Assembly (NCBI GenBank): GCA_003818285.1
Contig: RPRB01000006.1
Coordinates: forward strand, 2,504 to 66,503
Length of the DNA stretch: 64,000 nucleotides
Direction: 5' to 3'
Source of the DNA: Myxococcaceae bacterium
Lineage (GTDB): Bacteria > Myxococcota > Myxococcia > Myxococcales > Myxococcaceae
Shown here: positions 2,113 through 58,444 of the stretch, piece after piece
Numbering within the stretch: position 1 is the first letter of the stretch
How the letters are laid out: each line of letters begins with the position of its first letter
Program-made: the position numbers and the translations under genes
Notes under the pieces: model-generated
Seen by the model: the letters and a program-made list of their open reading frames with translations, nothing else
Databases searched by the model: none
What the model was told of the DNA's origin: nothing

Positions 2113-2143
2113 TCACTTCTCTCCTCTGTTGCAATGGCTTGGG

Positions 2144-3813: not shown

Positions 3814-4011
3814 TCAGTCCGCCGAGATCCATCCCAGGTCGACCGGACCGAGGAGGACGCGGATGAAGGTGCCGCCCATGTAGGCTTCGTCGCCAGGGTG
3901 GTGCGGGCGGAACTCGATGTCGACGACCGTCCCGAAGGAGCGGGTGTTGCCGAAGCGGTAGTCGTCGCCGATGCGGAAGTCTGAGTCGTCGCGGTCTGAG
4001 CGGAAGTCCAT
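3814..4011 (-). CDS. hypothetical protein (65 aa)
   Basis: ORF MDFRSDRDDSDFRIGDDYRF... It is preceded by cassette P3 and an AGGAG Shine-Dalgarno. Confidence 0.5.
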   Translation of the reverse strand: MDFRSDRDDSDFRIGDDYRFGNTRSFGTVVDIEFRPHHPGDEAYMGGTFIRVLLGPVDLGWISAD

Positions 4012-4038
4012 GGTCGTGATCTCCTGTTGCCGTTGGAA

Positions 4039-4074
4039 GCACTCTACTCATGAAACCATTTGCAGAGTGTCAAC
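4039..4074 (-). promoter_or_regulatory. early promoter-like cassette P3 (TTGACA-N21-TAGAGT)
   Basis: Minus strand reads GTTGACACTCTGCAAATGGTTTCATGAGTAGAGTGC, ~30 nt upstream of the ATG at 4011. Confidence 0.45.
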
Positions 4075-4086
4075 GCCGGCGAACTT

Positions 4087-4869: not shown

Positions 4870-4870
4870 T

Positions 4871-5104
4871 TCACTTCTCCTGTGCCAGTTCGATCAGTCC
4901 AATGTGGAGCAGATCCTTTACAAAGTCGTCAAACGAAGAGGTTCGAATTTCTCCTCCAGTCTGCATGACGATCCGCTCGGCCGCCTGCTTCATCCAGGTC
5001 GTGTCGTCCCCGACGGGGGAGTGGGAGGTCCGGTGCATGTGGCGGACCAGGGCTTCCGGGGTGGCCGCGTCGACCACCCGGCCGTCTACGATGTACGTGG
5101 TCAT
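4871..5104 (-). CDS. hypothetical protein (77 aa)
   Basis: ORF MTTYIVDGRVVDAATPEALV... packed between the amidoligase and GGCT genes (1-2 nt gaps). Confidence 0.5.
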   Translation of the reverse strand: MTTYIVDGRVVDAATPEALVRHMHRTSHSPVGDDTTWMKQAAERIVMQTGGEIRTSSFDDFVKDLLHIGLIELAQEK

Positions 5105-5105
5105 G

Positions 5106-6116
5106 TCAGCGAGCTCCTCGGTTGAAGTGCACCGTCCGGGCGGCGAAGTAGGACTTCTCCGCGTCGTCGGCCTTGATAGCGTCCATCAGCTCATCCAGGT
5201 TGGCAGCCTGCTTCGGGCCCTCCTTCGAGGCTGCCGAAATCTTCAGGCAGAACCTGACCCAGTTGATGACCTTCTCCGCCTCGACCGTGCCCTGGTGGTG
5301 GCGGAACTCGATCGTGCCGTGCTGCCAGAAGGACTGCAGGTTGACCTTCCGATAGCGGTTGCCGTCCCGCATCGCCTGCACACCGTGCCGGCGGAACGAC
5401 TCTGAGCTGCCGTTCGTGTGGTAGGCTGCCGCAGCGACCTGGTCCACAGTCTGGGCGGCCATCAGCATCATCACGTTGAACCGGATCGGCTGGCAGAACA
5501 TGTTGGCCGTCCCCCGTCGGGAGGGGCTCATGAACCGATCGATCGTCGACTCAGCCGAGGAGTAGAGCTGGATGACGTTCTTGAAGAAGTCAGCCGACTC
5601 GCCGCGGGCACCGATGTGGACGTGCAGACCGCACCGGACCGTGACCTTGCAGCCCATCGCCTTGAGGGCGTTGCAGACCGTGCGGACCTGCTGGAACCCA
5701 GCCTCGCCCTGGAGGGGAGGGCTGACCGCCTCAGCGCCGCGGTCGTAGCCGACGGACTGGTCGGTCACGATCTTCCAGTGCCGGCGGAGGGAGTGGTTGT
5801 AGCCCTCTTCGTGGCACTCGACGCCAGCCTCGGTCACCTTCCGGGCGCAGGTCGCCAGGGTCATCCCGGCGGGGCGGACGAACTCCAGCTCGACGCCGAA
5901 GGTGAAGGCGGCCAGGTCGTAGCCGACCGGGGCCGTCGGGGACGTCAGGGCTGACGTCTGACCGAGCTGAGCCCGGAGCCAGTTCAGCCGCTCCCGACGG
6001 TAAGCGATCGTCTCGAGGGGGCCGTTGAGGGTGCGAACGCGGCGGACGCCGCGGGCCTGTGCGAGGGGAACGAGGTCGTTCCATTCCGCTTGAAGCTGAC
6101 GAAGAACCGAAACCAT
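5106..6116 (-). CDS. glutamine-synthetase-like amidoligase (Amidoligase_2-type)
   Basis: FTFGVELEF near the N-terminus and RCGLHVHIGAR match the conserved blocks I recall for the putative amidoligase family. Confidence 0.75.
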   Translation of the reverse strand: MVSVLRQLQAEWNDLVPLAQARGVRRVRTLNGPLETIAYRRERLNWLRAQLGQTSALTSPTAPVGYDLAAFTFGVELEFVRPAGMTLATCARKVTEAGVECHEEGYNHSLRRHWKIVTDQSVGYDRGAEAVSPPLQGEAGFQQVRTVCNALKAMGCKVTVRCGLHVHIGARGESADFFKNVIQLYSSAESTIDRFMSPSRRGTANMFCQPIRFNVMMLMAAQTVDQVAAAAYHTNGSSESFRRHGVQAMRDGNRYRKVNLQSFWQHGTIEFRHHQGTVEAEKVINWVRFCLKISAASKEGPKQAANLDELMDAIKADDAEKSYFAARTVHFNRGAR

Positions 6117-6209
6117 GACGTTGTTTTCCTGTGCCGGGAAGATCTACTGGTAGTATCCCATCCAAGCCCTAGTGTAAACCTGGCGGGGGGCGAAGAAGTT
6201 CAGTGGAGG

Positions 6210-6243
6210 CACCATACAAGAGAAAAGTTTGCAGAGTGTCAAC
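6210..6243 (-). promoter_or_regulatory. early promoter-like cassette P4 (TTGACA-N20-TATGGT)
   Basis: Minus strand reads GTTGACACTCTGCAAACTTTTCTCTTGTATGGTG, ~95 nt upstream of the amidoligase ATG. Confidence 0.45.
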
Positions 6244-6270
6244 GGGGGCCGAAGCCCCCGATTTTATTTT
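6244..6270 (+). terminator. GC hairpin plus T-tract (plus-strand oriented intrinsic terminator-like)
   Basis: GGGGGC-CGAA-GCCCCC is followed by GATTTTATTTT on the plus strand. On the minus strand the hairpin has no downstream U-tract. Confidence 0.4.
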
Positions 6271-6596
6271 CAGGCCACCGGGTGGAAGACGGCGCAGTCA
6301 GAGTAGGCGCCCTTGATCTCGGTCCGGTACTGGTGGCCGTCGATCAGGACGACCTCGCCGTTGGTCAGGGCAGGCTCGACGTTCAGGCGGTCGATCTCGG
6401 CGCGGTCTGCATCGCTGTACGAGGACTTGATGCAGCCGGCGATCTGCATCGCCCAGTAGACGCCGTCGCCGACCTTCGCGTAGTCGCGGTAGAGGGCGGC
6501 GCGCATCGGCAGGTAGTCCTTGGCCCGACGGGGGTGGGCGACGTTGAAGGTGTTGACCTGGTCGAAGGAGCCGGTGGAGAGGGTGAGGGTGCGCAT
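6270..6596 (-). CDS. hypothetical protein (108 aa)
   Basis: Internal ATG (residue 14) of ORF 6270..6635. The upstream MVLTLK codons belong to cassette P5. Confidence 0.55.
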   Translation of the reverse strand: MRTLTLSTGSFDQVNTFNVAHPRRAKDYLPMRAALYRDYAKVGDGVYWAMQIAGCIKSSYSDADRAEIDRLNVEPALTNGEVVLIDGHQYRTEIKGAYSDCAVFHPVA

Positions 6597-6615
6597 CGGG
6601 GTTGTCCTGTGTCTG

Positions 6616-6683
6616 TGTTTCAGTGTCAGCACCATACTGCAAGAGTGTTTGCAGAGTGTTAACAGCAGAGACTTTGCAGAAAA
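6616..6683 (-). promoter_or_regulatory. early promoter-like cassette P5 (68-bp repeat, copy A)
   Basis: tgtttcagtgtcagcaccatactgcaagagtgtttgcagagtgttaacagcagagactttgcagaaaa. On the minus strand this is TTAACA-N20-TATGGT. Confidence 0.5.
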
Positions 6684-6686
6684 TAA

Positions 6687-6881
6687 TCAGGCCTCGTCTC
6701 CGTTTATTTTTTGCATGGCTGCCACGCCCTCCGCGACGGTCATCGTGCCCGCGCCGACCGCCTCCATGACGGATCGCATGTCCGGGTTCATCCTGGCGCG
6801 GTGGCGGGCCTCTGCCTCCGGGTCGTGGGGTCGCGGGTTCTGCTGGCTCCAGCGTCCCACCGTCTTGTTTGGCTTTGCCAT
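6687..6881 (-). CDS. hypothetical protein (64 aa)
   Basis: Internal ATG (residue 12) of ORF 6687..6914. AAGGAA Shine-Dalgarno. Sequence MAKPNKTVGRWSQQNP... Confidence 0.5.
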   Translation of the reverse strand: MAKPNKTVGRWSQQNPRPHDPEAEARHRARMNPDMRSVMEAVGAGTMTVAEGVAAMQKINGDEA

Positions 6882-6894
6882 GTCCGTGTTCCTT

Positions 6895-6962
6895 TGTTTC
6901 AGTGTCAGCACCATACTGCAAGAGTGTTTGCAGAGTGTTAACAGCAGAGACTTTGCAGAAAA
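6895..6962 (-). promoter_or_regulatory. early promoter-like cassette P6 (68-bp repeat, copy B)
   Basis: Identical over 68 bp to 6616..6683. Confidence 0.5.
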
Positions 6963-7041
6963 AGAAACCGTCGGACCTCTTGGCGGCGCCGCGTGGCTAG
7001 CGGCCTTGCCTAGGATTGCTCCCGGGTCCGACGGCAGGGCT

Positions 7042-7260
7042 TCAGACGCCGCGGGCGATCAGCTCGGCGTCGATCAGCATGGTCGAGAGGTGGTCCTCCA
7101 TCTTGTCGACCCACTTGTCCGCGTAGCGGGCGGAGGCCGAGATCTCCAGGTGGTCGATGCAGAAGATGAACTTCTCGCCGGTGGCGAACCAGGCGCTCGC
7201 GTCGGCGATCGTCAGGACTTCCAGCTTCTTGGCGAGGTAGTTGGCGGTCGAGGTGGTCAT
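7042..7260 (-). CDS. hypothetical protein (72 aa)
   Basis: Internal ATG (residue 41) of ORF 7042..7380. Sequence MTTSTANYLAKKLEVL... Confidence 0.5.
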   Translation of the reverse strand: MTTSTANYLAKKLEVLTIADASAWFATGEKFIFCIDHLEISASARYADKWVDKMEDHLSTMLIDAELIARGV

Positions 7261-7273
7261 CTGCGTGTTCCTT

Positions 7274-7338
7274 TGTTTCAGTGTCAGCACCATACTGCAA
7301 GAGTGTTTGCAGAGTGTTAACAGCAGAGACTTTGCAGA
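7274..7338 (-). promoter_or_regulatory. early promoter-like cassette P7 (repeat copy C)
   Basis: Identical to copies A and B for 65 bp. Confidence 0.5.
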
Positions 7339-7376
7339 GAAAAGATTGGGGGCTCCCGAAGGAGCCCCCGGCCGGA

Positions 7377-14697: not shown

Positions 14698-14712
14698 GTT
14701 TACATTGTCCGC
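14698..14712. promoter_or_regulatory. operator-like 15-mer O3 (inverted, GTTTACATTGTCCGC)
   Basis: Its reverse complement GCGGACAATGTAAAC matches O1/O2 at 13 of 15 positions. It lies ~22 nt upstream of the plus-strand ATG at 14734. Confidence 0.45.
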
Positions 14713-15879: not shown

Positions 15880-16355
15880 ACAGCAGACCACACCAGCCTC
15901 AGAGGTTCCCCCGCGAGGCAGTACTGATGGACAAGCTTGCCCAAGCGATCGATCTCGAACCCGAAGTCCGCCAGGAGCTGCCCCCGGCGGACGCCCCCGA
16001 GGCGGTCCGGGCCGGAATGGTCCTGCCTGACTACGTCACGCACATGGACGGGGCGACCCGGTCCGGGATGCTCTCGGCTGCCGCCGTCGTCCGGGAGTAC
16101 GAGGCCACGGCCAAGATGATCGACGAGATGGGGCAGGAGCTCCGGGCGTCCCAGGACCGGGTCGCTGAGATGATGAGCACCTACGCCGAGGCGTTCAAGA
16201 AGCTCCAGGACACGGTCCAGGCCTACCGGGACGAGGGCAAGCGGCTGTTCGAGCAGGTCGAGTCCAGCTCCAAGCTGGCCGACCGCGTGTCTGAGACCTG
16301 CGACATGCTCCGGCGGGAGCTCGAAGAGGCTGGCCGCCGCGACGACAACAGTTGA
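15876..16355 (+). CDS. hypothetical coiled-coil protein (159 aa)
   Basis: GTGA-coupled start. The C-terminal half is helical and charged (EMGQELRASQDRVAEMM...). Confidence 0.5.
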   Translation: MNSRPHQPQRFPREAVLMDKLAQAIDLEPEVRQELPPADAPEAVRAGMVLPDYVTHMDGATRSGMLSAAAVVREYEATAKMIDEMGQELRASQDRVAEMMSTYAEAFKKLQDTVQAYRDEGKRLFEQVESSSKLADRVSETCDMLRRELEEAGRRDDNS

Positions 16356-16774
16356 CCACAGGGGAGGACGGCAATATGCCAGCTCAGATCGGACCGAAGA
16401 GGAAGAGGCCCAAGGAGCAGACCAAGCAGATCGACGAGCAGATCGGACTGCGAATAATGCAGCGCCGGAACCAGCTCAAGATGAGCCAGAGCGAACTGGG
16501 GGAGTGCCTCGGCATCACGTTCCAGCAGATCCAGAAGTATGAGCGGGGCCTGAACCGGGTCTCGGCCTCAGCCCTGGTCTTCTTTGCCAAGGCGCTCAAC
16601 GCCCCCATCGCCCACTTCTACGAGGGCATCGAGGGCGTGCCCCCGCGGGAGCCCACCGCGATGGACAAGTTCGTCGCCACGCGGGATGGGATCGAGGGGC
16701 TGACAGCCCTGTCGAAGATGAAGCCCCCGCTCCGTCGGGCGTTCATCGACCTGGCCGGACAGGCCGCCAAGTGA
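16352..16774 (+). CDS. XRE-family HTH transcriptional regulator
   Basis: MSQSELGECLGITFQQIQKYERGLNRVSASALVFFAKAL is a classic Cro/C1-type HTH. The QKYE(R)G.NR form is common in Alphaproteobacteria. The start may instead be the ATG at 16376. Confidence 0.8.
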   Translation: MTTGEDGNMPAQIGPKRKRPKEQTKQIDEQIGLRIMQRRNQLKMSQSELGECLGITFQQIQKYERGLNRVSASALVFFAKALNAPIAHFYEGIEGVPPREPTAMDKFVATRDGIEGLTALSKMKPPLRRAFIDLAGQAAK

Positions 16775-47000: not shown

Positions 47001-47400
47001 AGTGGAAGACCGAGGTCGAAGCCCCCTGCTCCCCGGTGGCGCCAGTCTCACCCGGCGGGCCCTGGTCGGCGGCGTCGCCGAACACGGTCGACTGGGCTGG
47101 CCCCAGGGTCCGGACCCGCAGAGGAGCGACGATCGCCCCGTCGTTGTGCTGGAGGAAGACGAGGACCTGCTCCGACGGGTCGTCGTTGTACACGGTCACC
47201 AGCTCGACCGTCCGGAGGATGCCCGCCCCAGGCGAGGGCGACGCCACGACGGTGCCCCCGCCCGCGTCCGCGACGATCGTGTTGAGCCTCCCCGGCGTGA
47301 TCGTGTCGTCGATGGTGGTCTTGTCGACCCACGACGCGTGGACGCGCGCCGCCCTGTCGGTGACGACCTCCAGCGTGTCGCCCTCCTGGAGTATCAGCAT
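44071..47400 (-). CDS. collagen-like tail fibre protein (1109 aa)
   Basis: Long Gly-X-Y runs ([13 protein letters not shown]; [22 protein letters not shown]...). Two similar modules ([12 protein letters not shown].. / [12 protein letters not shown]..). Gly-rich C-terminus. Confidence 0.85.
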
Positions 47401-50021
47401 CAGGTTGCCTCATCTTCGCTGTCGTCTTCGTCCTCAGTGATCCGCTCGAACTCTTTGATGCGGCCCTTCTCGTCGTGCTTCGTGACCGTCGTGATCTCCC
47501 GCCCGCCCCTGTTGACGATGGTCACGGGGACGGTGACGTGGATCGTCTGCTCGTCCTTCGGGGCGCGCTTGCTGAGGGCGGTCGCCGCGTCCTTCTGGGT
47601 CTTGAAGTTCCCGATCTTCCCGTTCTTGTCGTCGGCCCTCCACCTCACCGCCTCGCCCCGTCCCGACGCGACCGCACCCCCTGCGCCGCCGGACCTCTGC
47701 TCGTTCGTGACGACCTGCTTGACGGTGCCCACCTTGGTGTTGCCCTTGTAGGCGTTGTAGGACTTGAGCTTGACCGGCGCCTCCTTGCCCAGGACCTTGG
47801 TCTCGCGGTTGTGGTCGGAGGCCTCGTACATGTCCAGGCCTGCGACCTGGCCGGCGAACTTGCCCTTCTCGGTGGTCTCTCCGACCTTGGGCGCAGCCGC
47901 TGCCGCCCCTCCGCCCCCGCCCGATCCGAACTGCCCGTTCTCTGCTCGCTCCTGGTTCTCGTTGTACTCGTCCAGGGCCACCTCGGGGACGTCGGTCTCG
48001 TTGTTGAAGCCCGTCATCTGGATCTCCTGGAAGACCTCGGGCCCGAGGACGATCTCGCCCCGGTAGGGCTCCATCTCGTCGATCTGCTCAGGCCCGTTGT
48101 AGGTGATCGTGACGTGCGGGTTGTAGTCCTCGTAGTCGTACGAGCAGCCCTGGTGCTTCAAGGAGGAGTGGCGCCAGGACAGGTCGGAGTTGCCGAAGGC
48201 GAGGACGACAGCCTTGCCGAACCTCTCGACGATGCGGGGTCCGCCGGGGACGACGCGGATGTGCCCCTCCAGGTCCTGGCCCCAGGCCTCGCCCATCTTG
48301 ATCCAGTCGACCGCCTCCTTCGAGTACATGATCGTGACGTGCATCTCGGCCGGGGTGACCGTGGACTTGAAGCCCTGCGAGGCCGCCCAGTCGATGATGG
48401 CCTGCGCGTTCAGCACCCTGCGGTAGACGTAGAGGGGCTTCGGGGTCGCGTCGGCGAGGGCGTCCCGGACGGCGGCGTTGCCCGACGGGGTCCGCATCCT
48501 GTCCCTGCCCTTGATCCTGCGGCGCCGCTGGGCAGCCCGGAAGTCGTTGGCCGCCCTCTTGGCCGGGTCCAGGTTGCTGTTGGCGGGCTCGGGCAGATCC
48601 GCGTCTGGGTCCTCGGGGTCCACCTCGGCGTTCGGGTCAGCGTTCGGATCGACCACGGGCTCAGGTTCTGCGCGCAGACCCTCCTCGTGGTCTGGGTCGT
48701 CGAACTCCTCGATGATCTGCTCGATGCCTGGGTAGGTTCCGTCCTCGATGAGCTGCGCCTCCCTGGCCTTCTTGAGCACCACCGGGTCCAGGATCGCGGC
48801 ATCCACGTCCACCTTGAACGTGTCGGCCTTCTTCTTCTCCAGGTCAGCCTTCTGCTCCGGCGTCATCTGCCAGAGGGAGTTCCACACGTAGAAGATCTCC
48901 TCGGGCTTGGAGCCGAGGGCGGACCGGATCAAGACTTCGTCCAGGCGCCAGAGCACCGGGGAGTCGTCGTTCTTCTGCTTCGAGGAGACCGAGTCGTAGT
49001 AGTTCCTGGTGTCGCTCTCGCCCGTCGCGCTCATGCCCGCGGGGGACTGGCCGAAGAAGCGGGTCGCCGGGATGTCGGCTGCGCCGCAGACCATCAGGAA
49101 GTACATCTGCAGGATCTCGGGCAGGGACGCGAACGAGGCCACCTGCCTCTGCCACTCCTCCTCCTTGTCGATCAGGAGCATGGAGTGCACGCCCTTGATG
49201 ATGTTGGCGAGGCCGAACCGCTCGAGCAGGTTCCGCTCGTAGGTCCTGGATGAGATGTTCAGCGTCAGCCCTGGGATCTTGATGATGTCGATCTTCGACT
49301 CCGCCACGAGCTGAGCCACCGACGCAGTCACCAGGCCGCAGGACTTGATGGCGTCGGCGACGTTCAGCAGGACGGAGTCGCCCCAGGGCTGCTTGGTCGT
49401 CAGGACGTCCTGTCTCGGCATCCCGACGAAGGGGACGACGCGGCTCGGGTGGAAGCGGACCAGGGTGCCGTTGAACAGGGAGTGGCGCTCGTAGTAGGAG
49501 GGCTCACCGTACCAGGGCGAGGTGATGTCGTCGATCATGGGGCCAGGCGACACGTCCCAGCGGCTCACCGGGTGCAGGAACTCCAGGTCTCCGACCCTGA
49601 CCGCCTCGATGTCCACCGGGGTCTCGTTGGATGCGCCCTTGATGCCCATGACGATGCCGGCGCCCCCGTAGAGCCGAGCCTTCTGCTTGGCCACCTTCAT
49701 CTTCTGCTGCAGGCCAAGGCGCTGCTCCTCCGCCTCGATCGCCGTGATCTCCTCCGGGTCGCCGGCCTGCCAGGACCGCCACTCCCTGGTGGCGTCCTCC
49801 GCCGGAATGTCGATGAGCTTCCGGGCGATCCAGTCGCCGCGGTAGGCCGCGTCGGCCTGCGCCTGGTCCATGTCCGGCATGACCCAGTTGACGCCGGTCA
49901 TCTTGTCCTTGGCCGTGCCGAGGCCCGTCGCCAGGTTCTCCAGGCTGTCCCGCGCAGACTTCTGGCTCGGTGGGGGCTTGGATGCCCGACGGGTTGGTGC
50001 GGAAGCTGCTCTCTTAGCCAT
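47400..50021 (-). CDS. portal protein (DUF1073-type) with C-terminal 2H-phosphoesterase-like domain
   Basis: N-terminal [16 protein letters not shown] and ~470 aa of portal-like sequence. Residues ~527-667 carry two H-V-T-I motifs 75 aa apart (MHVTIMY, PHVTITY). A long charged tail follows. Confidence 0.85.
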
Positions 50022-51567: not shown

Positions 51568-52655
51568 CAGAATGCAAAGCTCACGTTGGTGGCTTCGACC
51601 TTGTCGACGTCGAGCGGGTCGTCCGGGTCCGTCTTGAACGTGATCGAGACCGTGATCGTGCCTGGCCCCCTCTTGGTCTCCCCCGTGTTGAAGGTCTTGT
51701 AGACCCCGGCCATCTCGTCCTCCGGGAAGCGCCCGACGTCGTCGTGGTCGACGTTCGGCGGGAAGAAGGCCGGGGCGCCTGCGTAGAAGTCGACGTCGGC
51801 GTTGAAGATGTCGTCGGTCGCGACGTCCTCGGGCTGAACCACCGGCCACGCCTCGTACCCCATGACCTTCAGGTACCGGGCGAACCAGAGCTTGCCCTCG
51901 TAGCTGGCCTTGCCGCCGATCGCCCCCGGACGGGACCAGGTCACGTCGAAGGTCACCACCTTCTGGCCGACGGCGACAGCGGCAGACTTGAGGGCGTCGT
52001 AGGCGATCCAGATCAGGCGCGTGCCCGGACCGACGGTCTGGGTCTTGGACGCTCCGACCTCGTCGTGGCCGGCAGTCTCGGTCAGCAGGAAGATGTCCCA
52101 GTTGAAGCCGGCCAGGCCGATGTCCGTCGCGATCGACATGGCGAGGACGTTCGAGTAGAGCGAGCTGGCATCGTCGGGCGCAGTGTAGTCTGAGCCGCCC
52201 GCTCCATTCCACGAGACTGTGAACGGCACCTCCTGCTCGCCGAACGGATCGAAGCCGGAGGAGCAGATCGCCCCGGTCAGCGTGTCGATGAGGACGTACT
52301 CACCGGCGTCGATCACGTGGAAGGTCAGCCCGGAGAAGACCTTCGACCTGGGGTCGGCCACCGCAGGGAACGCGTGGAACTTGTTGGGGGCTGCGGTGAA
52401 GGCGGGCACGGGGTCGGCTTCGCTGCCCGGAGGGGCAGACACCTTCTCTGGGAACGGGCCGTAGGCCAGGACGCCGTCCTGCCAGCCGAACCAGGGGAAG
52501 TCCGACTGCAGAGTGATGCGGACGCTGGGGTCCGTGCCCCCCGACGGGATGCTCGAGTCGACCTGCCCCATGCCCTGGACGAACAGCAGGAGATACCGGC
52601 CTCCGGGCCAGTTCACGTTCACCAGGTGCTGGGTGGGGTCGTGGGCTAGCGGCAT
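51567..52655 (-). CDS. hypothetical protein (362 aa) in the small-terminase position
   Basis: Internal ATG (MPLAHDPTQHLVNVNWPGG...) coupled at both ends. Beta-rich. No TerS-like HTH recognised. Confidence 0.55.
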   Translation of the reverse strand: MPLAHDPTQHLVNVNWPGGRYLLLFVQGMGQVDSSIPSGGTDPSVRITLQSDFPWFGWQDGVLAYGPFPEKVSAPPGSEADPVPAFTAAPNKFHAFPAVADPRSKVFSGLTFHVIDAGEYVLIDTLTGAICSSGFDPFGEQEVPFTVSWNGAGGSDYTAPDDASSLYSNVLAMSIATDIGLAGFNWDIFLLTETAGHDEVGASKTQTVGPGTRLIWIAYDALKSAAVAVGQKVVTFDVTWSRPGAIGGKASYEGKLWFARYLKVMGYEAWPVVQPEDVATDDIFNADVDFYAGAPAFFPPNVDHDDVGRFPEDEMAGVYKTFNTGETKRGPGTITVSITFKTDPDDPLDVDKVEATNVSFAF

Positions 52656-53332
52656 CAGCGTGCAGTCCGGCCGAAGGTTCGCTTTGGGAGGTAGCTGTCG
52701 GCCCCTGGGGGCTTGCGGAGGGGCTGGACGCTGGCCCGGTGGTGATACGGGCAGTAGGCCAGCGGACGCGCTCGGCTGGCCCCTGAGGCCCGTGGCGCGT
52801 CGCACACCAGCCCGTCGGGCATCGGCCACTGGCAGCGATCGCCCTCGGGGACGGTGGCATCCCCTGCCGAGGTCGCCATCGGACCCTCGAGGCTGGCGGC
52901 TCCCTTGGTTTCCTTGGACTTCGGAGGCCTCACCTGGTCGATCTGCATGGTCCTGGACACAAACACGGTGGTGTTCCCCATCCCCATGTTGACCCTGCCA
53001 GCCCGAGGCTCAGGTCCGGTCTGAGTGTCCTGGGACTTGTAGTTCGCCTTGGCTCTGACCCTGCTGATCTGACGCATCTTCACGTCCATCCGCACGCCAG
53101 TTGCCCTGCCGGCGGTCCTCGGATACTTCTTCTGCAGGTCGAGGCGGTGGATCTTGCCCCCGACGGCAGAGATCGTGAAGGTGACACAGGAGCGGGGGAA
53201 CTCCGCCCGCATCGCCTTGACGATCTTGGCGATCGTCAGGTAGGCCCCGCGCGTGCCCGAGTACAGGAGCTCGAGGTGCGCGATCTCCTGAGAGGTCCAC
53301 CTGCTGTTCGGGGAGTCGGTCTTTGTCATCAT
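52655..53332 (-). CDS. GcrA-like cell-cycle regulator homologue
   Basis: The N-terminal W-T-x-x-E ... ISAVGGKIHRLDL and the C-terminal CQWPMPDG..C ... YCPYH resemble GcrA (WT.E ... KVHRLGL; C.WP.G ... FC ... PYC..H). The start is at 53332 or 53329. Confidence 0.65.
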   Translation of the reverse strand: MMTKTDSPNSRWTSQEIAHLELLYSGTRGAYLTIAKIVKAMRAEFPRSCVTFTISAVGGKIHRLDLQKKYPRTAGRATGVRMDVKMRQISRVRAKANYKSQDTQTGPEPRAGRVNMGMGNTTVFVSRTMQIDQVRPPKSKETKGAASLEGPMATSAGDATVPEGDRCQWPMPDGLVCDAPRASGASRARPLAYCPYHHRASVQPLRKPPGADSYLPKRTFGRTAR

Positions 53333-53622
53333 CAACAGAAGTCTCGTTTTGTTGCGTACAAGTTTAACGACCAATCCTCATGGTCTTTCTACGTTGACAG
53401 CATTCTCGTTTTCCTGACAGCAATTGCATCCTTCTGTTCTCATGACCTTTCTACGTTGACAGGAACTTCGTTTTGGAACCAGCAATTGCATCCTTCTTTT
53501 CTCATGACCTTTTGGGGTTAACAGAAATCTCGTTTTCCGCGTTGCAATTGCATGCTTCAGTTCTCATGGTCTTTTGGGGTTGACAGAAATCTCGTTTTGA
53601 CCCGTAGAAGTTTAACTGATCC
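53331..53622. repeat. 62-bp phased repeat array, block 1 (units R1-R5)
   Basis: Cores start at 53331, 53393, 53455, 53517 and 53579 (GTTGACAGAAATCTCGTTTT and variants). Confidence 0.95.
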
Positions 53623-53623
53623 T

Positions 53624-53915
53624 GTGAGCCACATACGCCGGGTGTGTGCCTCATCGGCCGGCCAGTGTGCCGGATGTGTGGCCAGAGGTTCAGGTGTGAG
53701 CCGCATACGCTAGCAGTGTGCCTCATCGGTCGGTTCCCCGACAGGTGTGTGGCCAGAGGTTCAGGTGTGAGCCCTCATTGCCAGGTGTGAGACTCACAGG
53801 CGCGGACGGGATCTTGTGCGACGGGTGCAGATCCGATGTGTGGCTCACTGGCCGGGTTGTGAGGCTCACTGCTCCGCTGTGGTCCGGATGTGGGGCGTGT
53901 GTGCCAGGTGTGTTG
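53624..53915. repeat. GT-rich repeat segment (~72-bp unit x2.5 plus GTGAG/CTCAC motifs)
   Basis: Units start at 53624, 53696 and 53767. GTGAGCC / GGCTCAC occurs at least 6 times in both orientations. Confidence 0.85.
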
Positions 53916-54139
53916 GTCAACAGAAGTCTCGTTTTAGTCCGTACAAGTTTAACTTCCATTCCTCATCTTCTGCCAACGTTAACAGGAACTTCGTTTTGAT
54001 CCAAGCAATTGCATCGATCAGTTCTCATCTTCTGCCAACGTTAACAGAAATCTCGTTTTAGCCGACGCAAGTTTACCGATCTTTCCTCATGGTCTTTCTA
54101 CGTTAACAGAAATCTCGTTTTATTCAGTGCAAGTTTAAC
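53916..54139. repeat. 62-bp phased repeat array, block 2 (units R6-R9)
   Basis: Cores start at 53916, 53978, 54040 and 54102. Confidence 0.95.
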
Positions 54140-54482
54140 TGCACTCCTCCCGGAAGCGCCGGCAGTTGCCCTGGCCTCGGTCCCCGCGTTCGTCCTTGAA
54201 CATGCAGGCGCGGCGCAGCCGCTCGCAGCGGCCACCTCTACCACCGCCACCAATGATGTCGCCGATGCCCCCAATGACGCCGCCGCCGCCGCCGCCTCCC
54301 CTTCCACCGCGCTCATCTCCGCACTGCTCTCGGAAGCGCCGGCAGTTGCCGTCGCCCCGCTCGCCCAGCGAGTCACGCATCAGGCAGGCTTGGCGCAGAG
54401 ATCGGCAGTCTTGTGCCTCGACGAGGGTCGGGATCAGCCCGACGGTTGCGAGGGAAGCGGCGATCAGGAGTGCCTTGAGCAT
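54135..54482 (-). CDS. secreted Cys-rich repeat protein (115 aa)
   Basis: Internal ATG. The signal peptide is MLKALLIAASLATVGLIPTLVEA. Two C-X6-C-X13-C-X6-C modules are joined by a poly-Gly linker. Confidence 0.6.
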   Translation of the reverse strand: MLKALLIAASLATVGLIPTLVEAQDCRSLRQACLMRDSLGERGDGNCRRFREQCGDERGGRGGGGGGGVIGGIGDIIGGGGRGGRCERLRRACMFKDERGDRGQGNCRRFREECS

Positions 54483-54499
54483 TTGGTTGTTTCCCCTTG

Positions 54500-54785
54500 G
54501 TTGACAGAAATCTCGTTTTGGAACCAGCAAGTTTACCGATCCGCTCTCATCTTCTGGTGACGTTGACAGAAATCTCGTTTTATTCCCAGCAAGTTTACCG
54601 ACCGATCCTCATCTCTCTTCAACGTTGACAGAAATCTCGTTTTGATCAGTGCAAGTTTACCGATCAATCCTCATGGTCCGTTGGGGTTGACAGAAATCTC
54701 GTTTTGATCGGTAGAAGTTTAGCTTTCAGCTCTCATCTTCTGCCAACGTTGACAGAAATCTCGTTTTCCTGACAGCAAGTTTAAT
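54500..54785. repeat. 62-bp phased repeat array, block 3 (units R10-R14)
   Basis: Cores start at 54500, 54562, 54624, 54686 and 54748. Confidence 0.95.
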
Positions 54786-55257
54786 CATCCTCGCCTGTCG
54801 TCTGGAAGGCTTCGTCCTCGATCTCAGTAAACTCTGCGTCCACGACCGACGGGTCGTCGGGCAGGGATGGGTCGTGCTCGATCAGGGTCGGCGGGCGGTA
54901 GCCCCGGTCCAGGAGCTGCTGCCTGAGCTGGGCGGCGGTCATCTTCGGGCCGCCGTCTGCGCCGACCGCCGCAGCCGTGATCGTCGCATCGACCTGCTTG
55001 GGGATGATCTTGCCGACGAGCGGACCGAAGATGTCGGGCTTCTTGCGGGACAGCCACACCAGGTAACCGATCGCTCCGTCCTTGCCCTTCCCGTCTGACC
55101 CGCTCTTGTGCATGGCGTCGATCACGAGCTCTTGGACGATGCGCCCGTTCTTGTTGGGAATGCCCTTGCGGGTCTTCGTGGCCTTGTCGCCCTTGTGGAG
55201 CGGCTTGAGGCCCCGGTATTGGGGCAGGTCCAGCTTCGGAGATCTTGATCCGGCCAT
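54781..55257 (-). CDS. hypothetical basic/acidic protein (158 aa)
   Basis: ORF MAGSRSPKLDLPQYRGLKPLHKGDK... with an acidic C-terminus. No motif recognised. Confidence 0.5.
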   Translation of the reverse strand: MAGSRSPKLDLPQYRGLKPLHKGDKATKTRKGIPNKNGRIVQELVIDAMHKSGSDGKGKDGAIGYLVWLSRKKPDIFGPLVGKIIPKQVDATITAAAVGADGGPKMTAAQLRQQLLDRGYRPPTLIEHDPSLPDDPSVVDAEFTEIEDEAFQTTGEDD

Positions 55258-55521
55258 CCGACACCAAATCTAGTTGTTTGACGGACCGATGAAGGAACCG
55301 AACCTGGGCGTCGACCTGGCCGAGCGACGATAGGGGCCGCTTCCGGACCTTTTTCGAAACCACAAACTCCTATTAGGAACGTTCGCTGGACCCACCGGAC
55401 CCGACGGTCTGGACGGGGAGGGGCTCCCTATACTGCTCCTACCCTTATTTTAACCCCTTTTCCCCCCTTTCCTACCCGACGGGACAGCATATTCTCACAC
55501 ACACACGTGCAAAGAATATCC

Positions 55522-55600
55522 GTCCAGGCGTCCAGTTCCTCGGCTAACCATCTTGTAATCAAACAATTTTTTGATAGGACGCGTCACTGGACGCCTGGAC
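55522..55600. promoter_or_regulatory. 14-bp perfect inverted repeats flanking an AT-rich 51-bp core
   Basis: GTCCAGGCGTCCAG (55522..55535) and CTGGACGCCTGGAC (55587..55600). The core contains ATCAAACAATTTTTTGAT. Confidence 0.6.
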
Positions 55601-55666
55601 ACGAAAATGGCGGCACCCGTTTTCTGATCTGGACGGCCCGACGGGTGGAGGACGGGTCCGGACGGG

Positions 55667-58444
55667 TCAGCCCAACGGGGGCACCCGTCCGCGATGCTGC
55701 CGGGGTACTTCCGCGTTCAGATCCTGGTCCGTTCGGCTCAGGGTGGTGTGTCCGCCCTGCCGGTTCGCAAGGAACCCAGCCCTCGCATTCCAGTGCGCCA
55801 GCCCCGCCTCGTTCAGCTTCAGACCGCCCACGTGCCGCTGCGGCTGCCCGAACTTGTCGAACTTGAACATTGCGCTATCCGGGTGGAACTTCAGGGCCTT
55901 CGCGAATGCGCCAGGCGACGGGATCGGCAGGCCGTGGTTCTCCTCTCGCCAACTGTGAAACGCCGCGTAAAGATCCGCGCTGACGTTCATCGCGGTCCGG
56001 TCGTACTCGCAGCAATCCCTGACGAAGCCGATCGAGATGTTGCTGTCCTCCCGGAGCTCAGCCGAGGCCTCGTCCATGTCAGGAGTGTACGAGTAGTGGC
56101 CCCTCGCCAGGGCCCGCTTCATCCCGGCAATAGCCCAGTTCAGGACGCCTGACTTCTCCTCCTCAAGCACCCAGTCCGCCGGAGACGAGTAGCCCCTCGC
56201 AACCGCCTCAGCGGCCACGCCCGTCGGGCGCAGGGGGTCGAACACCGTCCGGATGCGCAGGATGGCCAGGCGGTTCTCCATTGCCCTGCTCATCTCCCTG
56301 AACTGCGGCATCACGTTCGCGCCCCAGAACGACGGCCCGCGGTAGACGTGCGCGGTCTGGGCACCGTTCTTGATGTTCACCCCGACGGGGTCCGACGACA
56401 GCAGCGCCTTCACCATCGAGCTGATCTCCCACTTGGACTGATCGAAGGCTTCGTGCAGGACCCAGGGCACGCTGCGGAGGAACGGCTCCGTGCCGTGCGG
56501 CTTTGAGAGCTGGTCGATGGGCTGCGTGATCGGGGCGTTCGTTATCAGGCCGCTGAGGACGTTCAGGAGGGTCGACTTGCCGGAGTTGCTCTCGCCGACC
56601 AGGACCAGAGCCCGCATCAGCGCCTTCTGCTTCCGGGCCAGGAGCGCCATGCCTAGGTTCTCCTGGATGAATGCGACCGCGCCGTCGTCCTTCACGATGT
56701 CCTTGAGCGTCCGCATCCAGATCGGGCAGGCGGCCGCCGGGTCGTACTCGCACTCGATGCGGGCTGTGGCGTAGTCGTCCGGCCTATGCGGCCGGTGGTG
56801 CATGGTTTCCAGGTCGACCAGGCCTGACTGCGTTGAGATCATCCCGTGCGCGTCCCACTGCACGTCAGCTTCGTCCTGGTGGATCTCCCCCATCCGCTGC
56901 AGGTGGGCGATCGTCTCATTGATCACGGTCGTCGTGGGCACGATGCCCAGGGCGTCGCACCCGACGTTGATCTCTCGAGCTAACCAGGACTTTTCCTCCT
57001 TCGTCACCCCGTACATCGCCCACAGCCCATCCCGGTAGCGCCAGGGCACAGAGCCGATGTACATGAGCTGCTCGCCCCGCTGCTCCAGAGCTGCCAGGAC
57101 GCCGGCGGCCAGGACCACGTGGGCGTCCTTCTTGCCCTTTTTCTTCCTCCCCTCCTTGGGCTCAGGCCGGGGCTCGCTCTTCCGCTGCGCACGGACCTGG
57201 TCGAGGTGCACCACCTGGGCAGCCCTCCCCGTCGGGCGGGGTGCTGGCTTCGGCATGGAGGCGAGCTGCTGCATGCCCCGGTTGGCCTGCAGGGAGGCCA
57301 GCTCCGGCGGCTCCCCGCCCATCGCTTCGTCTAGGATCTCGCCGCTGTCGTCCTCAGGATCGTGTGAGCCCTCATCGGCCGTGAGTGCCCTCTCTTCCTC
57401 CACTTGGTCCTCTGGCGGCTCCGCCGGGAACTCGTGGCCCACCTTCTTGATCCACCCCCGCATCGCGCCTCGGACCTTCCGGCGCTCGACGTCCATGTTC
57501 CAGCTGTCCTCGGCGACGCGCTCTAGGGCCTCCATCATCTTGGCCTCGACGAAGTCCTCGGTGTAGCCCTGGGACAGCATGCCCGACGTGACGTCGCGGA
57601 TGGTCAGGTGGACGGAGAAGGTCTCGTCTATGCCCTCGTCCCGGCGCTGCTCCAGGTACTCCATCCGGGCCAGGCGGTCCCGCCAGTCGATGTGGTCGGT
57701 GTAGCCCTGCAGCTCAGCCACCCGGAGGAACGGGTTCTCCTGCTCCGCCACCTTCCGCTCCCGGACCTTTCGCGTCAGCACTGGAGGGGCCTCCTGGGCG
57801 GCCAGGGAGCCCAGCCAGGCGCTCAGCACCGCTCGGGGGTACCTTTCCCCCTCGCCAGCCAGCACGCGCACCAGCGCCCACGCCCCGGCTTTGGTGTTGT
57901 GGGTTCCCGGAACCCGGAGCAGGGTGACAGCGTGCCGGGTCGCCTTGTCCCCCGCCAGGTGGTTTCCAAGGACTTGGAGTTCCGCCTCGTAGGCTCTGAC
58001 GTCCTCGGGTCCGGGCGCATCCGTCGGGTCGGTGAAGAACCAGTAGGCGTGGACGCCCCCTCCGGACCTGTGCATTCGGCTGGGCGGGTTCGGCAGGGCG
58101 GCCAGGGCTGCCAGGACCTCGTCCTCGGTGTTCAGGATGTCCTTGAAGTCGATGTCGACGTGCAGGCACGTCAGGGCGGCCACGTTGGGCTTGACCCGCT
58201 TGTGCCCCTTCAGGATCGGGCTGACGCAGTGGAAGCAGCCCCGCTCGGCCCTGTCGTGCTTGACCAGGAACCGGCGGATGCGCTCTGGGTCCCTCGTCAG
58301 GACGTGGACTTCGCCCTTGCCTGACTGGCCCCGGACGTTGGGCAGGCTGCACACGTAGACGGGGTGGTCGTGCCCCTGCAGCATGTAGTCGACATAGAGC
58401 GTCAGGTCGGCGCCGGGGCCGACTTCTTCGTTAATCTCAGTCAC
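55667..58444 (-). CDS. bifunctional primase-polymerase / SF3 (D5/P4-type) helicase
   Basis: AEP motifs LHVDIDF and SGGGVHAYWFF at the N-terminus. Walker A LVLVGESNSGKSTLLNVL in the C-terminal third. 925 aa. Confidence 0.9.
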   Translation of the reverse strand: MTEINEEVGPGADLTLYVDYMLQGHDHPVYVCSLPNVRGQSGKGEVHVLTRDPERIRRFLVKHDRAERGCFHCVSPILKGHKRVKPNVAALTCLHVDIDFKDILNTEDEVLAALAALPNPPSRMHRSGGGVHAYWFFTDPTDAPGPEDVRAYEAELQVLGNHLAGDKATRHAVTLLRVPGTHNTKAGAWALVRVLAGEGERYPRAVLSAWLGSLAAQEAPPVLTRKVRERKVAEQENPFLRVAELQGYTDHIDWRDRLARMEYLEQRRDEGIDETFSVHLTIRDVTSGMLSQGYTEDFVEAKMMEALERVAEDSWNMDVERRKVRGAMRGWIKKVGHEFPAEPPEDQVEEERALTADEGSHDPEDDSGEILDEAMGGEPPELASLQANRGMQQLASMPKPAPRPTGRAAQVVHLDQVRAQRKSEPRPEPKEGRKKKGKKDAHVVLAAGVLAALEQRGEQLMYIGSVPWRYRDGLWAMYGVTKEEKSWLAREINVGCDALGIVPTTTVINETIAHLQRMGEIHQDEADVQWDAHGMISTQSGLVDLETMHHRPHRPDDYATARIECEYDPAAACPIWMRTLKDIVKDDGAVAFIQENLGMALLARKQKALMRALVLVGESNSGKSTLLNVLSGLITNAPITQPIDQLSKPHGTEPFLRSVPWVLHEAFDQSKWEISSMVKALLSSDPVGVNIKNGAQTAHVYRGPSFWGANVMPQFREMSRAMENRLAILRIRTVFDPLRPTGVAAEAVARGYSSPADWVLEEEKSGVLNWAIAGMKRALARGHYSYTPDMDEASAELREDSNISIGFVRDCCEYDRTAMNVSADLYAAFHSWREENHGLPIPSPGAFAKALKFHPDSAMFKFDKFGQPQRHVGGLKLNEAGLAHWNARAGFLANRQGGHTTLSRTDQDLNAEVPRQHRGRVPPLG

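Follow-up and report, generated by a model that had tools for sequence, protein, structure and literature searches.

The DNA of an uncultured, metagenomic phage contains an array of strictly phased repeats at the boundary between its replication genes and a late gene string of ~36 kb. The question raised by this locus is what kind of element the array represents and what might read it. We analyzed the array together with the surrounding 64 kb of DNA (referred to as the window) and the corresponding loci of related phages. It looks like a row of docking sites for a DNA-binding protein, and not like promoters, genes or RNAs. The best reading that the sequence offers for the 62-bp units is that of cis-acting sites, arranged in an iteron-like phased array for a predicted DNA-binding protein.

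Architecture of the repeat array

The array comprises 14 direct units with an exact spacing of 62 bp in three blocks, and TRF returned a period of 62 for every block. A scan with the 20-mer at up to three mismatches yielded 12 matches in a single orientation (0 expected by chance), which start at positions 53393, 53455, 53517, 53579, 53916, 54040, 54102, 54500, 54562, 54624, 54686 and 54748. The units at 53331 and 53978 have four mismatches each to the 20-mer and keep the exact register. A profile HMM built from the units found exactly 14 copies in the window and none outside the array. The unit count, phase, block structure and core starts given in a preliminary description of this DNA are thereby confirmed.

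Since all neighboring genes lie on the minus strand, the natural reading of the units is the reverse complement, and the array is co-oriented with transcription. On this strand a unit reads TAAACTTGC (or TGCAATTGC)-N7-AAAACGAGATTTCTGTYAAC-N11-ATGAG-N10. The 20-bp core, AAAACGAGATTTCTGTYAAC, is asymmetric as a whole, with a degenerate palindrome GTYRAC in 13 of the 14 cores; the 9-bp box and ATGAG are located at fixed distances from it. All 11 internal units contain CTCAT, which reads ATGAG on the minus strand. As described earlier, TTGACA is exact in eight cores, and a motif count showed that 8 of the 11 plus-strand TTGACA hexamers of the window lie inside the array. The palindrome GCAATTGC, previously assigned to four units, has four copies in the window, all of them within array units. 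The G+C content of the blocks (0.41–0.46) is indeed lower than that of the flanks (~0.65).

In the direction of transcription the array starts with block 3 (54500..54785, minus strand), which consists of five 62-bp units, all of the TAAAC type and with five identical cores. The TAA of its first unit (54781–54783) is the stop codon of a 158-aa gene, and a Shine-Dalgarno sequence and the start codon (ATG) of a 115-aa ORF come after its last core. Block 2 (53916..54139, minus strand) is built up from four 62-bp units, namely TAAAC, TAAAC, GCAATTGC and a terminal subtype in which the core ends with ...GACTTCTGTTGAC; the TAA of its first unit is the stop codon of the 115-aa ORF. Block 1 (53331..53616, minus strand) contains five 62-bp units (TAAAC, three GCAATTGC, terminal subtype), and its last core runs into the ATG of a GcrA-like gene. 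Blocks 1 and 2 thus close with a common terminal subtype. The units are mosaic, with two between-block pairs having identical N7 7-mers. The whole region extends over 1.45 kb and includes the three blocks, the 115-aa gene and a GC-rich, dyad-symmetric spacer.

At a helical repeat of 10.5 bp each 62-bp unit corresponds to a rotation of -34 degrees, and the units are in phase only near 10.33 bp. The earlier statement that all cores face the same side of the helix holds near the latter value and fails at 10.5 bp.

The non-coding spacer between blocks 2 and 1 (53617..53915, GC 0.58–0.67) represents a second repeat and palindrome element. It has its own 71–72-bp direct repeats, about ten TGTGAG(n)CTCACA-type palindromes or half-sites, three further ATGAGG on the minus strand and a large-scale dyad symmetry. 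Blocks 2 and 1 flank it as a distinct central segment. No ORF with coding-type GC3 was found in the spacer, and its RNA fold showed nothing significant. This element had been missed in the preliminary description, as had the co-orientation with block starts on stop codons, the enclosed gene and the insertion status discussed below.

Neighboring genes

The 115-aa ORF (54135..54482, minus strand) lies between blocks 3 and 2. It is cargo-like, with a signal peptide, two copies of the Cys motif GNCRRFRExC and a good SD (AAGGGG) in front of its start. There are 148 homologous cluster representatives at E<1e-3. It is a real gene for a predicted secreted protein, a member of a family of small secreted proteins that is widespread. 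Co-mobility of the units with this cargo was rejected, because the locus of the nearest homologue (L096) has no array.

Directly upstream of the array is the 158-aa gene (54781..55257, minus strand), the first gene of the conserved string 158aa - GcrA-like - 362aa - TerL - portal. Its product is a candidate for the small terminase by position only. No Pfam, PDB or named PHROG match was obtained for it, the AlphaFold model is unreliable (pLDDT 53), and the identification as small terminase failed by Pfam, PDB profile and AlphaFold alike. The GcrA-like gene (52655..53332, minus strand) lies directly downstream of the array and encodes an N-terminal GcrA HTH together with a C-terminal Cys motif; the match to PF07750 (E 4.4e-5) is below the gathering score. 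The array had been placed directly between the replication genes and the gcrA-like and terminase genes. The GcrA-like gene does adjoin it, but the 158-aa gene and the 115-aa ORF were missing from that picture.

A gene for a P4-alpha/D5-type primase-helicase (P4-family, D5_N) ends 0.9 kb upstream of the array, and the 158-aa gene stands between the array and this replication module. Homologues of the primase at 30–35% identity are found in unrelated integrated elements. The region after the primase gene contains a perfect 15-bp inverted repeat with 49 bp of AT-rich DNA in between (55522–55600), which makes it a more classical origin-like candidate than the array. The array and the 410-bp gap after the primase gene have no conserved core motif in common, and an 'ori + crr' pairing of the two was dropped. 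Operator-like 15-mers at 14.45–14.70 kb have only GTAAAC in common with the array units, so that a link to these was rejected as well. The early region encodes a small protein with a sigma-70 region-4-type HTH; a Zn-ribbon/sigma-r4-like phage protein is encoded at 7940–8275. Among the ORFs scanned in the window, none is of the ParA/ParB type.

Occurrence and conservation

The array is present in four independent assemblies. A Logan contig (SRR5468436) is identical across the entire array region, and an ENA contig (L008) has the same five units of block 3. Three more contigs (L016–L018) belong to a roughly 94%-identical strain in which block 1 differs in unit number and composition: it has 5–6 units, one of which is 65 bp long, which means that the helical phase is not absolute. 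The additional 3 nt are located within the short ORF of a unit and represent the sole indel seen in the relatives. The contig ends within the array (L016, L018) are assembly breaks.

Neither an array nor a single unit was found in phages with a TerL at 52% identity (L010–L015) or in those with a homologue of the 158-aa protein (L090–L093). In these relatives the 158-aa and GcrA-like genes are adjacent or overlapping (in L092 and L093 the GcrA-like gene follows or overlaps the 158-aa homologue) and are followed by the 362-aa gene and TerL. The entire 1.45-kb region, absent from every homologous phage found, is a lineage-specific insertion. The 20-mer does not occur as an array in 185,579 reference genomes or in metagenome contigs; there is one chance match in the former and four single matches in metagenomes. 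The other 20-mer matches (L001–L005, L020–L087) are single chance occurrences. Mimicry of a host repeat array is thereby excluded for the reference genomes, and a host repeat, CRISPR-repeat or antitoxin mimic was rejected on the same grounds.

The units differ from each other mainly outside the conserved boxes. The pairwise difference among units is 0.66 in N7, which is near saturation, versus 0.09–0.11 in the core and 0.00 in ATGAG across the 11 internal units. Between any pair of units at least 10 of the 62 positions differ, and there is no indel at the 11 junctions within the window. By this pattern the units are old yet constrained. Compared with the window, L008 has 11 substitutions in the 158-aa gene, all of them synonymous since the protein is identical, whereas block 3 (286 bp) has none (Fisher p = 0.009; 20–29 expected at the synonymous rate). 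With only one substitution between 54437 and 54837, however, a recent recombination tract may also account for the unchanged block 3.

These data bear on a further explanation, that of a tandem duplication or assembly artefact devoid of function. In its favor, tandem arrays are prone to expansion, homologous phages lack the element and the copy number varies. An artefact is refuted by the four assemblies, and neutrality is difficult to reconcile with variable segments near saturation next to a near-invariant core, with the lack of indels and with a block 3 that remained unchanged beside 11 synonymous changes in the adjacent gene. The preliminary description had regarded a lack of conservation in homologous phages as the mark of a neutral duplication. 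Relatives at 38–51% identity do lack the element, but the internal evidence argues against neutrality, and we regard this explanation as extremely improbable.

Promoter, RNA and coding signals

The TTGACA hexamers had been taken to indicate an array of antisense promoters. We scanned for TTGACA-like and TATAAT-like hexamers with at least 4/6 matches each, requiring A2 and T6 in the -10 element. Spacers of 16–21 were scanned, a range that includes the N20 geometry of the phage's early promoters. This relaxed scan gave no plus-strand promoter site in 53250–54850, and neither did a canonical scan. The weak -10 hexamers proposed before (TACAAG, GCAAGT, GCAATT) do not have the A that is essential at position 2. 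On the minus strand 2 of the 14 junctions are borderline promoter-like (TTGGCA-N19-TAAACT), one upstream of each cargo. A sigma-70 promoter array, antisense or sense, was therefore rejected. A likeness to the minus-strand early cassettes had also been proposed. The early-promoter family has GTTGACA / GTTAACA at five or six sites, and this heptamer is indeed found in the cores; beyond 7–8 nt, however, the similarity ends.

Other readers of short sites were rejected as well. Against promoters of a phage RNAP (T7-like, 20–23 bp), the window contains no RNAP-sized gene, and neither do another 6.4 kb outside it, in which the largest product has 656 aa. CcrM/GcrA methylation sites (GANTC) and CtrA boxes are both absent from the units. 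Intrinsic terminators are absent from the array. With respect to RNA, no Rfam family was found at E <= 1, the blocks fold no better than shuffled sequences (z-scores of -1.25 and +0.43), and for 11 units the consensus structure reaches -0.05 kcal/mol, with no stem and no covariation.

The units could nevertheless act in the late mRNA, either as 5-codon minigenes of the form ATG AGR xxx GRx xxx TAA or, for the GCAATTGC-type units, as ORFs of 21–22 codons that end in an ATGA overlap, and influence ribosome traffic, rare AGR tRNAs or polarity between cistrons. Alternatively, the array could be processed to repeat RNAs, as a type III antitoxin or CRISPR-repeat decoy. ATG is present in 11/11 internal units and is always followed by AGA or AGG, with variation only at the last base of this codon. 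In 7/7 minigenes the TAA of the TAAAC box is in frame, and it also terminates both upstream genes. The relatives show a single indel, a +3 nt change inside such an ORF, and the units are co-oriented with transcription. Because the unit spacing is fixed, however, the frame coincidences are each roughly a 1-in-3 chance. A GGAG/GAGG/AGGA-type motif at SD distance is found for 0/11 of these ATGs versus 16/23 real genes, and GC3 of the 21-codon ORFs, counted on the unit sequences, is ~0.38 versus 0.8–0.95 in phage genes. The best-conserved cores are those that follow in-frame stops, so coding cannot explain the cores. Peptide coding by the 5- and 21-codon ORFs was rejected on these grounds. The repeat-RNA variant is opposed by the lack of RNA structure, covariation and Rfam hits, by the 20-mer being unarrayed in the 185,579 reference genomes and by the absence of a toxin or cas gene alongside. 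An RNA or translational element is thus highly unlikely.

Possible roles of the array

Based on the architecture of the array we propose the following model. The anatomy of the array, its selective constraint, co-orientation and insertion status, and its lack of signals for promoters, terminators, RNA structure or coding are established by the analysis above. Protein binding, cooperativity and the process served are what we infer from the array: each unit would be bound by one copy of a sequence-specific DNA-binding protein, and 62 bp would correspond to about six turns of slightly overwound, wrapped DNA. With a site every 62 bp, the four to five proteins bound to a block could align and act cooperatively. 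We envisage a looped or wrapped nucleoprotein complex in which the three AT-rich blocks surround the GC-rich, dyad-symmetric spacer. The preliminary description had put three readings side by side, namely an iteron-type origin, a pac or partition-type binding array, and antisense promoters that serve as an RNAP/regulator sink. The general idea of a protein-binding array among these is in line with the conserved core, the fixed spacing and the co-orientation; its specific promoter claim is not.

As to the process, we prefer, with a probability of roughly 0.3, an iteron-type replication element (origin or copy-control), which would be served by the P4-alpha/D5-type primase-helicase encoded 0.9 kb upstream. 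Same-orientation 20-bp cores, AT-rich DNA and a strain-variable copy number make up what appears to be an iteron pattern. The 20-nt core, repeated 14 times in one orientation, falls into the range of the ~17–22-bp asymmetric direct repeats of iterons; the period of 62 bp departs from their spacing of ~21–23 bp, or about two turns. Against an origin role, the array is part of an insertion in the packaging string and is set apart from the replication module by the 158-aa gene, the product of the bracketed gene is a secreted protein and no initiator, and there is a separate, more classical origin-like region at 55522–55600. This role is placed only marginally ahead of a pac-type terminase recognition platform and slightly above a regulator sink or a PeSL-like cassette, and confidence in any one role is low.

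In a pac-type region, the blocks would be phased sites for the small terminase, whose ring would wrap the DNA, the large terminase would make its first cut in the GC-rich spacer, and packaging would proceed in the direction of the late genes. The array lies within the string from the 158-aa gene to TerL and portal, has the orientation of the late genes and begins on the stop codon of the sole small-terminase candidate by position; blocks 2 and 1 flank a GC-rich palindromic segment, and pac sites are lineage-specific. However, this small terminase is putative, with neither a Pfam, PDB or named PHROG match nor a confident model, and relatives with homologous 158-aa, TerL and portal genes do without the array. 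Known pac repeats are short and few compared to fourteen 20-bp cores, the copy number differs among strains, and the model assigns no role to block 3 and the 115-aa gene. We consider a pac function doubtful. In a modified form of the regulator sink suggested earlier, the cores may be regarded as -35-type elements (GTTGACA / GTTAACA) lacking a -10, which titrate a -35-binding factor, be it host sigma-70 region 4, the 7940–8275 protein or the GcrA-like protein. Rising genome copies would draw this factor off and help to switch off the early promoters that carry the heptamer; alternatively, the bound protein would serve as a roadblock or timer immediately ahead of the late genes. The concentration of TTGACA in the cores (8/11 on the plus strand of the 64 kb), the same heptamers at five or six early-promoter sites, the sigma-70 region-4-type HTH protein of the early region and the position at the boundary to the late string are all compatible with such a sink. 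It leaves the other 13 core positions, the 9-bp box, ATGAG and the fixed spacing unexplained, the likeness to the early promoters stops after 7–8 nt, no plus-strand promoter geometry is present, and relatives with the same GcrA-like gene lack the array; a sink is therefore unlikely. A more specific and distinctly unlikely form is a replicating decoy, a new type of phage cis-element with fourteen copies of the early -35 lacking a -10, inside a longer recognition site. As copies accumulate it would sequester sigma-70 region 4 or the sigma-r4-like protein, so that replication times the early-to-late switch, and its lineage-specific insertion would have placed it where the late genes begin.

The insertion itself can also be viewed as moron-type, with the units as portable, PeSL-like stop-to-start cassettes that flank cargo (the 115-aa gene and the GC-rich element), supply expression signals and serve as recombination substrates, and with tandem copies arising from unequal crossing-over. 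The whole region is inserted between genes that are adjacent or overlapping in relatives, and small secreted proteins of the cargo's family are widespread. Blocks 3 and 2 begin with the stop codon of the preceding gene, and blocks 3 and 1 reach the next start. The units are mosaic, with identical N7 pairs across blocks and a common terminal subtype, their number and composition differ between 94%-identical strains, and one of the two minus-strand TTGGCA-N19-TAAACT sites lies upstream of each cargo. However, there are no stem-loops and only 2/14 borderline promoter-like junctions, the arrays are tandem, unlike single-copy PeSLs, the nearest cargo homologue is not associated with repeats, and the invariance of the 14 cores is not accounted for. 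We judge this explanation to be as improbable as a sink. The iteron-like protein-binding array is retained as the preferred reading.

If the units are protein-binding sites, they are a natural case of unusual clarity for a phased array with a long period (six turns) and three conserved boxes per unit. It was probably acquired recently enough for sister phages without the array to serve as comparison. This would make it a tractable system in which to study the acquisition of a new origin, packaging signal or regulatory sink by a phage and to find the protein that recognizes an asymmetric site of 20 bp. Its practical value is modest, with the phage uncultured and the host only inferred.

Comparison with known systems

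Unlike the repeat-RNA arrays of ToxI-type antitoxins and CRISPR-repeat decoys, the array has no toxin or cas gene adjacent to it and shows no RNA structure. PeSLs of T4-type phages, which are recombination substrates, consist of a strong sigma-70 promoter and a terminator stem-loop in single, dispersed copies (PMC2839356, PMC4122927). Like the array, they are intergenic stop-to-start cassettes that flank accessory ORFs and differ among close relatives; the array, however, is tandem and has no promoter or terminator signals apart from the two borderline junctions. In the pac region of SPP1/SF6 (pacL-pacC-pacR), direct repeats lie on both sides of a cleaved central segment (PMC4737164). With the pac sites of SPP1/SF6 and P1 the array has in common the proximity to packaging genes, the directionality and the lineage specificity. 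The repeats of these sites measure 6–10 bp and occur in 2–7 copies, as opposed to fourteen 62-bp units with a third block and an enclosed gene.

The iteron clusters of F (oriS/incC), P1 (oriR/incA) and RK2 (oriV) resemble the array in their ~20-bp asymmetric direct repeats, in clusters that bracket a gene, in AT-rich DNA and in a copy number that varies among relatives. Classical iterons have a period of roughly 22 bp, and in F oriS-repE-incC and P1 oriR-repA-incA the repeat clusters bracket a gene, much as the blocks of the array enclose a gene and a GC-rich segment. The array differs by its period of 62 bp and by three conserved boxes per unit instead of one; it encloses a gene for a secreted protein, sits in the packaging string and is missing from homologous phages. 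P4, in which crr is a set of long direct repeats away from ori, is similar in that a P4-alpha-type primase-helicase gene lies near the array.

The F sopC centromere has 12 tandem 43-bp repeats and the family of repeats of EBV oriP has 20 tandem 30-bp repeats; in both, the units are long and the protein contacts only part of them. Their sites are palindromic and bound by ParB/SopB or EBNA1, whereas the core of the array is asymmetric. With both it shares a strictly phased tandem layout with one binding site per unit, which in the present case is a predicted one.

Organization of the repeat array

The window is a tailed-phage genome with a G+C content of ~0.65 and nearly all genes on the minus strand. 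A search with the core 20-mer of the array gave 12 matches with up to three mismatches between 53393 and 54767, all in a single orientation (0 expected by chance). Two more copies with four mismatches each, at 53331 and 53978, are in exact register. TRF assigned a period of 62 to each of the three blocks, and a profile HMM of the unit detected exactly 14 copies in the window and no others. These searches bear out the strict 62-bp phasing and the fourteen units in three blocks given in the preliminary description, and the G+C content of the blocks (0.41–0.46) is indeed lower than that of the flanks.

Read on the gene strand (minus), a unit consists of.TAAACTTGC (10 units) or ATGCAATTGC (4 units), a variable 7-nt segment (N7), AAAACGAGATTTCTGTYAAC, N11, ATGAG and N10. 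In transcription order, a D5_N-family primase-helicase (55667–58444) is followed by a 410-bp gap, a 158-aa gene (54781–55257, minus strand) and the five units of block 3 (54500–54785). Then come a 115-aa ORF encoding a signal peptide and two Cys motifs (54135–54482, minus strand), the four units of block 2 (53916–54139), a GC-rich spacer, the five units of block 1 (53331–53616) and a GcrA-like gene (52655–53332, minus strand). A 362-aa gene, the large terminase gene (TerL) and a portal gene with a fused Acb1 domain lie downstream. The TAA of the first unit is the stop codon of the 158-aa gene in block 3 and of the 115-aa gene in block 2, and the last core lies 17 nt (block 3) or 0 nt (block 1) upstream of the next start codon.

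The non-coding spacer between blocks 2 and 1 (53617–53915, 299 bp) has its own 71–72-bp direct repeats and an overall, long-range dyad symmetry with 28-nt arms 170 nt apart. It contains TGTGAGnCTCACA palindromes (about ten of the TGTGAG(n)CTCACA kind, whole or as half-sites) and three ATGAGG motifs resembling those of the 62-bp units.

Other features of the phage and its probable host

The portal-Acb1 anti-CBASS fusion is encoded at 47400–50021 on the minus strand (PF23474, E = 4e-36) and is also present in a related 76.9-kb phage (L090, 11300–13537). A minus-strand gene cluster at 2100–13300 hints at DNA base hypermodification or nucleotide metabolism. Its genes include an amidoligase, two GGACT/AIG2-like proteins, an Asn-synthase/glutamine amidotransferase, a C5 cytosine methylase, a thymidylate-synthase-like protein, a dCMP deaminase and a MazG/PRA-PH-like protein. 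Short repeats of the ACCTCTTGCACCTCATG type (7880–7950 and 8290–8340, minus strand) flank a Zn-ribbon/sigma-70-region-4-like gene (7940–8275).

The divergent intergenic region 14445–14712 carries an operator-like 15-mer, GCGAACGATGTAAAC, twice in direct orientation together with an inverted, diverged copy, GCGGACAATGTAAAC (13/15). The only plus-strand gene cluster adjoins this region and includes a Cro/CI-type HTH protein (16352–16774). The ORFs scanned yielded neither an integrase nor ParA/ParB. By our own estimate, GANTC (67 occurrences in the window) is ~3-fold below and GATC (537 occurrences) ~2.6-fold above the prediction from base composition.

The source is a 75,335-bp NCBI MAG contig labelled Myxococcaceae. 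An alphaproteobacterial host is indicated by the GcrA-like gene and by the most similar portals from isolates, those of Rhizobium phages RHEph04 and RHph_Y17 (44% identity), which makes the Myxococcaceae binning doubtful.

Independent assemblies and sequence constraint

The preliminary description had raised the question of an assembly artefact. Array blocks occur in independent contigs, which settles it: a Logan contig is identical to the window across 17.4 kb, an ENA contig from another sample (L008) has the same five block 3 units, and three contigs of a related strain (GcrA-like protein 94% identical) contain block 1 with 5–6 units of differing composition, of which one measures 65 bp. Public data with this phage comprise run SRR5468436 and the ENA samples underlying ERZ27267870 and ERZ27251438. 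L008 also has single extra bases within one core and immediately behind it (868–985, window 54484–54567) and more 1-nt indels near the start of the 115-aa gene. These look like homopolymer errors; if real, they would disrupt the 62-bp phase in that strain.

Selection acts on the units. Any two of them differ at at least 10 of the 62 positions, and the pairwise difference falls from 0.66 in N7 (near saturation) and 0.49–0.56 after the core to 0.09–0.11 within the core; for ATGAG it is 0.00 across the 11 internal units. None of the 11 junctions within the window has an indel. The units are also mosaic, as two unit pairs from different blocks have identical N7 7-mers and the last units of blocks 1 and 2 have a terminal subtype in common. 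Divergent, mosaic units with a conserved core would be an unlikely outcome of neutral recent duplication, and we regard neutrality or artefact as highly improbable.

The 158-aa genes of the window and L008 differ by 11 substitutions (all synonymous, since exact protein identity was the criterion for retrieving L008) and their block 3 sequences by none over 286 bp (Fisher p = 0.009), where 20–29 would be expected at the synonymous rate. The tract of low divergence runs from 54837 to 54437, so this identity may instead reflect a recent recombination tract.

Comparison with related phages

Three further phage contexts contain homologues of the 158-aa protein (38–51% identity). The L093 homologue overlaps the GcrA-like gene, after which comes the 362-aa homologue; the L092 homologue is separated from the GcrA-like gene by one small ORF; and the homologue in the 76.9-kb phage L090 is followed by four small ORFs, then TerL and the portal-Acb1 fusion. 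Neither the array nor a single unit was found in any of the three, and the array was not found in IMG/VR phages with a TerL at 52% identity. Conservation of core and phase in homologous phages, proposed earlier as a check, is thus absent from the relatives examined by way of the 158-aa protein and TerL. This distribution marks the 1.45-kb array region as a lineage-specific insertion in a conserved string of late/packaging genes.

The 115-aa ORF is a genuine gene from a widespread family of small secreted proteins (148 representatives). Its nearest homologue is found elsewhere, at an unrelated locus that lacks the repeat, so cargo and repeat are not one mobile unit.

Promoter, RNA and coding potential

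A canonical promoter scan found no promoter in the array region. In our own scan we allowed spacers of 16–21, because the early promoters of this phage have a 20-nt spacer. Even so, it returned 0 sites on the plus strand, so that the antisense promoter postulated for each core was not borne out, and only two junctions on the minus strand (TTGGCA-N19-TAAACT, at 54746 and 53976). Both scans rule out the array as a set of promoters. The early cassettes to which the core had been likened are real: GTTRACACTCTGCAAA(C)...TATGGT occurs in five minus-strand copies (7320, 6941, 6662, 6242 and 4073), with a variant at ~7810. They are near-identical, three being the same over ~45 nt, and have an unusually long hexamer spacer of 20 nt, once 21 nt. 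Their likeness to the core is limited to GTTGACA / GTTAACA.

Other known site types were rejected as well. Against promoters of a phage RNA polymerase, a gene of polymerase size is absent from the window and the next 6.4 kb; no unit contains GANTC, as methylation-dependent GcrA sites would; and TTAA-N7-TTAA, the CtrA box, was not found in the units. Mimicry of a host repeat array was discarded, since reference genomes, metagenomes and IMG/VR contain the 20-mer only in isolated chance matches.

No terminators were found in the array region. Minigene or RNA models are improbable. An Rfam search gave no match, RNA fold z-scores were -1.25 and +0.43, and the consensus structure of 11 units reached -0.05 kcal/mol. 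Each ATGAG opens a 5-codon ORF (ATG AGR xxx GRx xxx TAA), or in GCAATTGC units a 21-codon ORF ending in an ATGA overlap, and relatives show only one indel, of +3 nt. Against a coding role, the core is most perfectly conserved where it is located after the stop codon, the GC3 of the long mini-ORFs is ~0.38 (our count) compared with 0.8–0.95 in real genes, and a GGAG/GAGG/AGGA-type motif at SD distance precedes 0 of 11 ATGs, against an SD-type motif in 16 of 23 real genes.

Proposed function and comparison with known systems

We propose that each unit would be read by one sequence-specific DNA-binding protein. The 20-bp core is asymmetric and invariant, two further boxes keep a fixed distance from it, and the units are directly oriented, AT-rich, clustered and variable in copy number between strains; all of this fits such sites. 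The 62-bp period corresponds to six helical turns if one turn takes 10.33 bp, as in wrapped DNA; with 10.5 bp per turn, each site is rotated by -34 degrees relative to the one before. This geometry would suit a complex that is wrapped or cooperatively looped, not flat.

Our leading, still tentative reading (probability about 0.3) is that the array may serve as an origin or copy-control element, as its iteron-like form and the nearby P4-type primase-helicase would suggest. The 62-bp period, the placement inside the packaging string and the absence from relatives count against it, as does a region immediately behind the primase gene that looks more like an origin. That 410-bp gap (55258–55666) contains a perfect 15-bp inverted repeat (55522–55536 and 55586–55600), whose arms enclose a 49-bp AT-rich stretch with its own palindrome, and CTGGACGG 8-mers in both orientations. 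It has no conserved motif in common with the 62-bp units and is a separate candidate origin or late promoter.

A pac-type packaging platform is less probable than an origin or copy-control element. It would account for the position of the array and for the two blocks around a GC-rich dyad, a layout resembling the SPP1 pac site with its three sets of direct repeats (PMC4737164); yet no gene could be pinned down as the small terminase, and relatives do without the array. We consider it rather unlikely that the array is a regulator sink or late switch: the -35 heptamer common to early cassettes and core would be explained, but little of the remaining unit. A cassette or moron similar to PeSLs, the mobile regulatory cassettes of T4-type phages, is also an unlikely model. 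It accounts for the insertion itself, for the stop-to-start fit, for the mosaic units and for both promoter-like junctions (PMC2839356) and leaves the tandem copies and the invariant core unexplained. Minigene or RNA models, and behind them neutrality or artefact, trail these readings.

The array is clean, constrained and recently acquired; one lineage of uncultured phage is known to carry it, the comparative depth is shallow, and we infer its function from sequence. The array is real, and every candidate family compared failed on a defining feature. It is best filed as a variant of phased protein-binding repeat arrays that belongs to none of the families compared.
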